This document shows, one piece after another, positions 463 through 21,069 of a stretch of 27,640 nt of DNA. This DNA comes from an uncultured bacterium (lineage in GTDB: Bacteria > Patescibacteriota > Minisyncoccia > Phycocordibacterales > UBA9973). The notes under the pieces are model-generated. The model saw only the letters and a list, made by a program, of their open reading frames with translations. It did no database searches and had not been told where the DNA came from. Position 1 is the first letter of the stretch. Each line of letters opens with the position of its first letter. The stretch spans positions 1 through 27,640 of the forward strand of contig CAIQBF010000107.1 in NCBI GenBank assembly GCA_903869975.1. The letters are read 5' to 3'. The translations under genes were made by a program, and so were the position numbers.

Positions 463-2199
463 TTACAGTATGTCAAGGATCCGCAACCGTATGGTAGTTC
501 GTCCTGCAAAATATGACTTCTCGAGTGTAGCGACAAGGTCGATGCGCGCACCCTCGCTCGCCTTCTTGGTGAAAGTATCTCCGTCTGCAAAAAACGACAT
601 AGCGGTTCGCTCGAGCTGCATGTCGTCCGTGACGATAATTTCAAGATGGTTTTTTTCCTTACCAAACTGTTTGGTCTTTTTGATCGTTACATTTTTGAAA
701 AGGAACAGCGGTTTTGGATTGCCGAGACCGAATGGCGCGAGCCGGTTTATCATCGTAGTTGTATTGTCATTCACATCGGAAAGCGAAAGTGTCGCGTCTA
801 TGACAGCGCCCGTAGTTACGAGATCTTTTTTGAGCGTATCAAAAAGTGCACAGAGCTTTTCCTCGAGGTGATACACCGAATCTTGAGCGACAGAAAATCC
901 GCCCGCGAGTTCGTGCCCGCCGAATTCGAGAAAGTGTTCGCGTGCAGCCGTCATGAGATCCACAACGTTTACCGCGCCGTTTGAGCGGCACGAACCTTTC
1001 ACCAGGAGCGGCTCCCCTGGCTTCACTTCCCCGATACCCTCCCTGCCCCACACAAAAACTGGCCGATTGTACTCGTCCATAATCTTACCTGCCACAATAC
1101 CCACGACTCCCACACGCCACTCGGGGTTGCCGATAACGATGATGGGGCCGAGTTCGCGCTCGGAGAGTTTCGCTTTTACATCCTTCATAATGCGCGCCAC
1201 GATCTGCTTGCGCTCGTCGTTGATCTTCGTAAGGTGATCCGCAACCGTGCCCGCTTTCAGAGAATCACGTTCACTCAAGAGCTCAAACGCTCGCATCGGC
1301 GAATCCATGCGCGAGGCAGCATTAAGCCGAGGCGTCACCATAAAGGTAATATCGTCTTCCATAATCGTGCGCTGGTCGATACTGAGCTTCCGCAAAAGCT
1401 GCATGATGCCAGGGCGAGGAGATTTGCGAAAGACCTGCATACCAAACGATGCGATCGCTCTATTCTCGCCCGTGAGCGGAACCATATCTGAAAGAGTAGC
1501 CAGGCCAGCCATGTCGAGGAGCCACTTCTCCCATCCCGCGCCAACCTTGAATTCCTCACCATATTTTGAGAGAAAAGCTTGAACAAATTTAAACATGACG
1601 CCTGAACCACAGAGCATCGGATCTGGGTACGCACTTTCGGTATCGGCCCCGATCTTAGGATTCACGACGGCAAAGGCCGCAGGCAGTGTGGCATGCGGCA
1701 AATGATGATCCGTTACTATCACATCCACACCGTGCTCCTGTGCAAAAGCAATGTCTTCATGATTGGTCGTACCAAGGTCGATAGTTATGATGAGCTTCAC
1801 GTCGTCCGTAATAAATTGCTCCACTGCTGGGCGGTTGAGTCCGTAGCCTTCCGTATGACGATCAGGAATATATACGACAAAATTCTCATACCCTATTTTC
1901 TTCAAGAGGTCGTGTAAAATCACTGCACCCGGAATTCCATCGCAGTCATAATCGGCGTAGACAACAATCTTTTCTTCTTTTTTGATAGCCTCATACACGC
2001 GCACAACGGCACGCTCCATATCGTGCATCAAAAATGGATTATGCAGATGATTCTCATAGCTTGGCTTGAGGTACCGCGCAGCTGCCTCCTCTGTCGTATA
2101 CCCCCGATTCACAAGCAGTTTTACCAGGAGCGGCGAGTGCGTTGTGAGCGAATGAGCGCCCTTGGCGGGCTCCCGGGCATGAGTAAAAAGTCTTTGCAT
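463..2199 (-). CDS. recJ: Single-stranded-DNA-specific exonuclease RecJ
   Basis: DHH-family motifs: DYDCDG, YGLN, TDHH, TLSDMVPL, PRLNAASR, KGSCRS, FGGHELAGG, LAPFGLGNPKP. Confidence 0.97.
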   Translation of the reverse strand: MQRLFTHAREPAKGAHSLTTHSPLLVKLLVNRGYTTEEAAARYLKPSYENHLHNPFLMHDMERAVVRVYEAIKKEEKIVVYADYDCDGIPGAVILHDLLKKIGYENFVVYIPDRHTEGYGLNRPAVEQFITDDVKLIITIDLGTTNHEDIAFAQEHGVDVIVTDHHLPHATLPAAFAVVNPKIGADTESAYPDPMLCGSGVMFKFVQAFLSKYGEEFKVGAGWEKWLLDMAGLATLSDMVPLTGENRAIASFGMQVFRKSPRPGIMQLLRKLSIDQRTIMEDDITFMVTPRLNAASRMDSPMRAFELLSERDSLKAGTVADHLTKINDERKQIVARIMKDVKAKLSERELGPIIVIGNPEWRVGVVGIVAGKIMDEYNRPVFVWGREGIGEVKPGEPLLVKGSCRSNGAVNVVDLMTAAREHFLEFGGHELAGGFSVAQDSVYHLEEKLCALFDTLKKDLVTTGAVIDATLSLSDVNDNTTTMINRLAPFGLGNPKPLFLFKNVTIKKTKQFGKEKNHLEIIVTDDMQLERTAMSFFADGDTFTKKASEGARIDLVATLEKSYFAGRTTIRLRILDIL

Positions 2200-20327: not shown

Positions 20328-20401
20328 TGGTGCGGGATAGGAGAGTCGAACTCCTCACCACAGTTTGGAAAACTGTTGTTTTACCGATAAACTAATCCCG
20401 C
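20328..20401 (-). tRNA. tRNA-Gly(TCC), CCA encoded
   Basis: Acceptor GCGGGAT/ATCCCGC, anticodon arm ACAGT-TTTCCAA-ACTGT, T arm GTTCGAC, 3' ACCA. Confidence 0.95.
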
Positions 20402-20457
20402 ATACTTCGGGCAAATGAGAATCAGAAACACTTCCCGATTCCCTGCCCGCGAAATAC

Positions 20458-20538
20458 CTAGCGATTACGAAGAGAAACCTGCTTCTTCGAGACTTTCTTC
20501 GCATGCTTCTTGATCGCAAGCTTTTTCTTTTTATTCAT
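20458..20538 (-). CDS. Putative 26-aa Lys-rich microprotein MNKKKKLAIKKHAKKVSKKQVSLRNR
   Basis: Hand translation: ATG 20538, TAG 20460-20458; 10 Lys, 2 Arg, no acidic residue; same strand as the flanking tRNAs. Below the ORF-track length cutoff. Confidence 0.55.
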   Translation of the reverse strand: MNKKKKLAIKKHAKKVSKKQVSLRNR

Positions 20539-20580
20539 ACAAATAGAGATTAGCAAATAAGGCGAACTCGCACAAGATAG

Positions 20581-20651
20581 TCGGGGCGCCGAGAATCGAA
20601 CTCGGCCCTCATGTTCCCAAAACATGCATACTACCGATATACTACGCCCCG
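20581..20651 (-). tRNA. tRNA-Pro(TGG), CCA not encoded
   Basis: Acceptor CGGGGCG/CGCCCCG, anticodon arm CATGT-TTTGGGA-ACATG, GTTCGAT; followed by CTA. Confidence 0.95.
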
Positions 20652-20667
20652 ATGTAAGGATACTACC

Positions 20668-21069
20668 TTAAATAATAATATTTTCCAAGTACTCGACCTG
20701 TGCACTACGCAAAACAGGATTAAGATGGACCACAATGAGGTCGAATTGCCAGTCCCGATCGACCCGCCGCTCAAGCAAATAGGTCGAGACGGTTCGCCGC
20801 AAACGCAGGAGTTTCTTTTGATGCATTTGCTCTTCTGGGCGATACCGGTCGAGTCTTTCACGGGAAACGCGTTCAGGAGACACTGTCTCGGCTTTTACTT
20901 CCACGAAGTGAACAATCGACCCTTTCTGGGCAACAATATCAATCTCGCCCCATTTCTTCGTGTAATTACGCTCAAGTATCGAGAAACCCTTACGCTGTAA
21001 GTAGAGGGAAGCAATCTGCTCCCCCTTCTCCCCCACCCTTTGTGTTTTTGAAGTAAAGACCTTGGGCAT
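20668..21069 (-). CDS. yraN: YraN/UPF0102 family PD-(D/E)xK nuclease-like protein
   Basis: GEKGEQIA, ILERNY, WGEIDIVA, HFVEVK, FDLIVV motifs. Confidence 0.9.
   Translation of the reverse strand: MPKVFTSKTQRVGEKGEQIASLYLQRKGFSILERNYTKKWGEIDIVAQKGSIVHFVEVKAETVSPERVSRERLDRYRPEEQMHQKKLLRLRRTVSTYLLERRVDRDWQFDLIVVHLNPVLRSAQVEYLENIII
20854..20869. other. parS-like site inside yraN (encodes VSRER)
   Basis: Minus strand CGTTTCCCGTGAAAGA, 13/16 to TGTTTCACGTGAAACA. Confidence 0.5.

Follow-up and report, generated by a model that had tools for sequence, protein, structure and literature searches.

Between the genes for tRNA-Pro and tRNA-Gly on a stretch of DNA from an uncultured bacterium of the Patescibacteriota (27,640 nucleotides, referred to here in its entirety as the window) lies an open reading frame of only 26 codons. 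Commonly used gene callers set a length limit that excludes genes of fewer than 30 codons. The locus therefore raises the question of whether this frame is a gene that annotation has missed and, if it is, what a protein so short and so basic might do. A preliminary description, made from the window alone, had taken it for an unannotated microprotein gene inside a tRNA operon and had suggested a ribosomal or nucleic-acid-binding role.

The locus

The features of the locus are collected in Table 1. The tRNA genes, on which ARAGORN and Rfam agree, flank the frame on the same strand, as the preliminary description had stated, and the composition that it had reported (26 aa with 12 K/R and no acidic residue) was recovered exactly. 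The 12 basic residues are 10 Lys and 2 Arg; there is one His, and Asp and Glu are absent, giving a net charge of about +12. Such a composition is rare in the source genome (716 kb in 110 contigs), where only two of 2531 ATG-started ORFs of 20–40 aa, read in six frames, combine at least 45% K/R with a lack of acidic residues. Proof beyond chance composition comes from the conservation described below. A second polybasic micro-ORF, 38 aa long and consisting almost purely of Lys/Ala/Val repeats, was noticed on the minus strand of another contig of the source genome (C25).

Table 1. Features of the microprotein locus (positions in the window).
Feature	Positions	Strand	Basis and remarks
Microprotein gene	20458–20538	minus	ATG at 20538, 26 codons, TAG to 20458
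tRNA-Pro (anticodon TGG)	20580–20651	minus	ARAGORN; Rfam RF00005, 58.6 bits
tRNA-Gly (anticodon TCC)	20328–20401	minus	ARAGORN; Rfam, 63.7 bits
Extended −10 element, TGC + TAATCT	20547–20555	minus	Read from sequence; end 8 nt 5' of ATG
Promoter-like site 5' of tRNA-Pro: TGCACA, 18 nt, TATTAT	20675–20704	minus	Consensus scan; pattern match only
Strong 42-nt hairpin in the spacer from the microprotein stop codon to tRNA-Gly	20408–20449	minus	RNA fold

The same frame stays open in the 5' direction as far as an upstream ATG, which yields a 55-aa ORF whose added part overlaps tRNA-Pro. This extended frame is conserved in none of the relatives found. As a query against a collection of 5.8 billion proteins it retrieved no homologue of 30–97 aa, and the family appears to be unannotated in that collection.

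The hairpin that follows the stop codon is part of a fold of positions 20402–20540 (minus strand) of −43.4 kcal/mol (z = −3.6). It is not kept in relatives, the spacers of genus mates being different, and may have a part in processing or stability. Because it lacks a U-run, co-transcription of the microprotein with tRNA-Gly is likely in the source genome.

The 26-codon frame is a protein-coding gene

When the 178-nt spacer between the two tRNA genes was compared with 60 relatives by DNA search, similarity to the genus mates was confined to the ORF (query positions ~40–122). A protein search recovered the full frame of 25–26 aa, start and stop included, in 9 of the 15 genomes of the genus and in further genera, three of them in the organism's own family, where the frame is again of full length and the stop is conserved. 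Altogether about 47 full-length copies of 23–27 aa were found in CPR genomes of at least 15 families. Every relative found keeps the full-length frame, and every copy has its stop codon.

Substitutions among these copies follow the codon phase. In 12 aligned sequences, 14, 10 and 25 sites vary at the first, second and third codon positions, so that 25 of the 26 third positions are variable, and the pairwise differences at these positions number 347, 230 and 832. Arg codons alternate between CGN and AGA, Ala codons among GCA, GCG and GCT, and the three indels present are each of 3 nt and hence in frame. For 37 sequences, pS is 0.71–0.75, that is, near saturation, and pN is 0.09–0.13; pN/pS is 0.18 in genus g1, to which the source genome belongs, and 0.12 in genus g14. 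The ratio exceeds 1.4 in the two other sense frames, where the number of sequences interrupted by stops runs from 6 up to the whole set, and also in the out-of-phase reverse frames. The in-phase antisense frame gives low values (0.23 and 0.27) because its wobble positions coincide with those of the coding frame, and stop codons interrupt it in one sequence of 10 and in five of 16. RNAalifold found no conserved base pair among 15 members, and a non-coding RNA element was rejected on this result.

The 26-codon frame is thus protein-coding and under strong purifying selection, and a chance ORF is rejected by the codon-phased substitutions and the low pN/pS. The preliminary description, which had named frame conservation in CPR relatives and dN/dS among the checks to be made, was right in taking the frame for a genuine unannotated microprotein gene.

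Expression signals

In most loci of the family, a TGnTAnnnT motif ends 6–10 nt 5' of the ATG, as does the extended −10 element in the window. No Shine-Dalgarno (SD)-like motif precedes the ATG of the source-genome ORF, and the same placement of the −10 for a start at the ATG, with no SD, holds for most relatives. The arrangement indicates a transcript start predicted at the ATG or no more than 2 nt from it, so that the mRNA would be leaderless or have a leader of just 1–2 nt. Taking the coding and promoter evidence together, we consider it very probable that the locus encodes a genuine protein and that its transcript is leaderless.

This mode of expression fits the lineage. Upstream of 773 long ORFs of the source genome, SD motifs are not enriched at any distance, while −10-like hexamers peak 6–11 nt before the starts. 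The source genome has no assembled 16S gene, and the anti-SD sequence was examined in three relatives (G013, G021 and G028), in all of which CCUCC is absent from the 3' tail of the 16S rRNA. A missing anti-SD has been described for a subgroup of Parcubacteria by Tsurumaki et al. (PMC9297842). The lineage appears to start translation without SD pairing, and the hexamer peak suggests that leaderless first cistrons are widespread in it; a leaderless microprotein mRNA is in keeping with the absence of a genome-wide SD signal and with the 16S tails lacking CCUCC. In a distant lineage that does use SD pairing (L042), a GGAGG-type site is found at the right distance 5' of the ORF in place of the −10 element, and this provides independent evidence of translation.

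Genomic context

The tRNA neighbourhood is a feature of genus g1. In every positive genome of this genus, tRNA-Gly(TCC) lies 11–65 nt downstream of the ORF, and tRNA-Pro is not fixed in place or strand with respect to the ORF. At the loci of genera g14 and g369 the gene is located between dnaK and dnaJ, around positions 1501–1700 of each locus, as a unit with its own promoter and intrinsic terminator; in g14 a hairpin followed by a T-run was recognized 3' of the ORF, and the −10 box of dnaJ comes after the terminator. A lysS-like gene lies 3' of dnaJ at these loci. The dnaJ gene of g14 and g369 has an extended −10 box a few nucleotides before its ATG and looks leaderless too. Neighbours in other CPR lineages include alanine racemase, LemA, tRNA-Glu with Dus, a SpoU rRNA methylase, an RlmI-like methyltransferase, LexA and NifU, and no consistent translation context emerges from these neighbourhoods.

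Linkage to tRNA genes is therefore a trait of one genus and not of the family. The tRNA-operon setting of the preliminary description applies to genus g1 but not elsewhere, where the gene stands alone under its own promoter, as it does between dnaK and dnaJ. Outside genus g1 it is a self-contained unit of promoter, ORF and terminator, and the retention of its own signals while the neighbours change argues that it acts in trans.

Distribution

Profile searches gave 8 confident matches among 400 genomes sampled across the phylum and 11 matches, in 7 families, among 400 genomes sampled across the class. Among 150 genomes of the organism's own family, the gene was detected in 4 of 45 genera: g1 (9/15 genomes), g14 (14/16), g7 (1/2) and g369 (2/2). 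Carriers make up 2–3% of the sampled CPR genomes, and named carrier records include Falkowbacteria, Nomurabacteria and a 'Saccharibacteria' MAG. Narrow pattern scans returned four loci from genome contigs and one from metagenome contigs, all of them from CPR or from the same contig. Searches of IMG/VR and INPHARED revealed no relative on viral contigs or in phage genomes, which leaves a phage or mobile origin unsupported.

Of the six negative genus mates, five were inspected. In four of these tRNA-Gly(TCC) is missing as well, so the region is probably unassembled there. In genus mate G013, which is 100% complete, tRNA-Pro and tRNA-Gly are present with a 220-nt spacer between them that stands in place of the microprotein gene; the spacer contains no such ORF, and no copy was found elsewhere in the genome. 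The 5' half of tRNA-Pro is partially duplicated at the G013 locus (positions 1794–1950 of that locus, minus strand), just upstream of the intact tRNA-Pro. Absence from this complete genome shows that the gene is accessory and not a core ribosomal component, with a patchy occurrence in CPR. A rare and patchy gene, missing from a complete genome of the same genus, does not bear out the general appeal of the preliminary description to an unusual protein complement of CPR ribosomes.

A match to the Toxoplasma mitoribosomal protein mS161

A profile built from 21 members of the family gave one significant match in the PDB, to chain HN of entry 9FI8 (9fi8_HN), which is protein mS161 (E = 3.3e-5, 27.6 bits). 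The second-best match scored 13 bits; in six-frame searches of ~950 Lys-rich CPR genomes, sequences outside the family scored ~16 bits at most. The alignment runs end to end, pairing query residues 1–26 with chain residues 2–26, and the C-termini coincide. A 12-member profile also matched mS161 (E = 0.0046), which was moreover the sole match of a single Falkowbacteria member (E = 3.6e-4). The similarity to the modelled mS161 peptide is full-length and significant. The near-invariant columns of the family, namely the MNKK start, Ala8, a Gly in the middle and the terminal SLR-x-R, match mS161 by identity or K/R equivalence. Members and mS161 have fewer than three exact 5-mers in common.

Protein mS161 is T. 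gondii TGME49_247640, of 341 aa (PMC11652630). Only its 26-residue C-terminal peptide has been modelled, in the SSU-head map of the mitoribosome (supplementary file 9 of PMC11652630), and the assignment comes from a 3.6 Å local map. The protein is not discussed in the main text of that paper, and the orthologues listed in supplementary file 9 are from Plasmodium, Eimeria and Theileria/Babesia, plus one FOZ63 ID. Our literature search found neither a CPR ribosome structure nor a discussion of mS161.

The matched piece is the very part of mS161 that is seen bound in the SSU head. In other respects the two differ: mS161 is a nuclear-encoded eukaryotic protein, in which the motif forms the C-terminal tail, and is Arg-rich, whereas the microprotein is Lys-rich. 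We put forward, as a tentative possibility, that the CPR microprotein and the apicomplexan mS161 tail are true homologues and would represent an undescribed family of bacterial SSU ribosomal proteins. Under such homology, and with the same reserve, the protein would be free-standing and leaderless in CPR and the tail of a long precursor in myzozoan mitochondria, as in the case of bS22/mS38. The likeness could also have arisen by convergence of two short K/R-rich sequences.

Comparison with other small ribosomal proteins

Scans of the members against Pfam and NCBIfam gave nothing above noise. The microprotein belongs to none of the small ribosomal families named in the preliminary description; the bS22/mS38 and Thx models do not match it. 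For bS22/mS38 (PF08213, COX24_C), hmmscan at E ≤ 10 found no match whether 12 or 21 members were used, and the model itself found nothing at E ≤ 10 in the six-frame translation of the source genome, the control being matched in Corynebacterium. Nor did any bS22 or mS38 chain appear at E ≤ 10 in the PDB searches with the family profile. Mycobacterial bS22 (33 aa, PMC10081302) resembles the microprotein in being tiny, polybasic, missed by annotation and non-essential, and has a KKH-type motif in common with it. The bS22/mS38 pair is also a parallel to the microprotein and mS161 in that a free-standing protein in bacteria has its counterpart at the C-terminus of long mitochondrial proteins (PMC10081302). 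The locations differ, however: the site of bS22/mS38 is at h44/h45 near the decoding centre of the small subunit, with bS22 at h44 in the body, and mS161 was modelled in the head map.

Similarly, bTHX is a polybasic peptide of 26–27 aa, buried in the 30S head and patchily distributed, and so is close to the microprotein in size, charge and patchiness. No member matches its sequence model (PF17070), which found nothing in the source genome and one sub-threshold match in 151 genomes of the family. With Thx undetected in the family, no complementary occurrence of Thx and microprotein was seen.

The bS21 model (PF01165) gave no hmmscan match and an hhalign probability of 2.4%. The C-terminal helix of E. 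coli bS21 (RpsU) has a local motif of 12–13 residues, A-[IV]-K-[KR]-H-A-K-K..., in common with the microprotein (pairwise BLASTP E = 8e-4 in a single comparison). At the sequence level we regard this likeness as a short basic motif and not as homology. A separate bS21-like ORF is present in the source genome (contig C43, positions 1327–1791, minus strand). It scores 17.5 bits, below the Pfam cut-off, and its basic core leads into a C-terminal tail rich in Thr, Ser and Pro; the listed frame is long at its N-terminus.

Discussion

The data presented here allow us to consider what the microprotein may do. The proposed ribosomal or nucleic-acid-binding role is partly supported, its one specific support being the match to the ribosome-embedded C-terminal peptide of mS161. 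From this match, and from general knowledge of tiny polybasic ribosomal proteins, we infer both that the peptide may bind the ribosome and where it may bind, and we give roughly an even chance to its binding rRNA as an accessory part of the small ribosomal subunit. The rarity of the gene, its loss in G013, the varied neighbourhoods and the lack of a match to any known ribosomal family count against such a role, as do the shortness and K/R-richness of both matched sequences and the 3.6 Å resolution of the map behind the mS161 assignment.

In the model that we favour, a stand-alone gene would specify an extremely basic microprotein of 25–27 residues from its own extended −10 promoter, through a leaderless or nearly leaderless mRNA that in genus g1 probably reads on into tRNA-Gly(TCC). 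The peptide would act in trans as an rRNA-binding polycation and accessory SSU protein, lying among rRNA helices and neutralising backbone charge, as the 26 C-terminal residues of mS161 do in the solved structure.

The charge of the peptide, with its total lack of acidic residues, would also suit a general nucleic-acid-binding polycation, that is, a protamine- or H1-tail-like coat of the nucleoid or of RNA, or an RNA chaperone, which would not be a stoichiometric component of the ribosome. The accessory distribution with loss in a genus mate and the presence of another Lys/Ala-rich micro-ORF on contig C25 are in line with such a protein. This is the main rival reading, but we think it rather unlikely, as the length is fixed and MNKK, Ala8, the middle Gly and SLR-x-R are kept across classes. 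This conservation beyond charge suggests a defined binding site, and the specific end-to-end match is to a peptide embedded in a ribosome. CPR bacteria are episymbionts, and a short, cationic, possibly helical peptide of accessory distribution might also be secreted or released to act on the host or on competitors in the manner of antimicrobial peptides. This is improbable for a protein that lacks a signal or leader peptide, that is encoded away from any gene for transport, immunity or maturation, whose neighbours include tRNAs, dnaK/dnaJ and alanine racemase, and whose family is absent from the phage and viral contigs searched; its hydrophobic residues, about one quarter of the total and mostly Ala/Val, are probably also a low share for a membrane-active peptide.

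Being short, rich in Lys codons and first on its transcript, and followed in g14 by a terminator, dnaJ and a lysS-like gene, the ORF could be read as encoding a cis-acting leader peptide, an attenuator or regulatory upstream ORF for tRNA-Gly in g1 or for dnaJ-lysS in g14. We rate this as highly improbable. The genes downstream are wholly different between lineages, and a −10 box beyond the terminator serves the dnaJ of g14 separately. Lys is frequently exchanged for Arg, which points to selection on charge and not on codon identity, and residues other than Lys are conserved. A conserved alternative RNA structure was not found, and the conserved terminator/antiterminator RNA and constant downstream operon of attenuators of the trpL/hisL type are lacking. 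Finally, a frame below the length limits of gene callers, with no match in Pfam or NCBIfam and no homologue of 30–97 aa in the 5.8-billion collection, might be no gene at all: it could have arisen by chance between tRNA genes, or be conserved as a non-coding RNA or a processing element. This is scarcely credible in view of the codon phasing of the substitutions, the pN/pS of 0.12–0.18, the in-frame indels, the stops in the other sense frames (6 to all sequences) and in antisense frames (1–5), and the lack of any RNAalifold pair, with start and stop conserved at ~47 loci that have different flanks.

Judged by sequence comparison, the family appears to be new in that it matches no described family and has been missed by annotation, while its kind, a tiny polybasic and probably ribosome-bound peptide, is already known. 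CPR genomes hold selected microprotein genes whose existence can be proved through comparative genomics alone, and the locus offers a clear case of predicted leaderless expression where the anti-Shine-Dalgarno sequence has been lost from the lineage. If the link to the ribosome is true, the microprotein would be a new accessory ribosomal protein of bacteria. It would also be a bacterial relative, missed because it has fewer than 30 codons, of a mitoribosomal protein so far listed only with apicomplexan-type orthologues, and would inform how reduced ribosomes, those of CPR and of mitochondria, compensate for lost rRNA and proteins.
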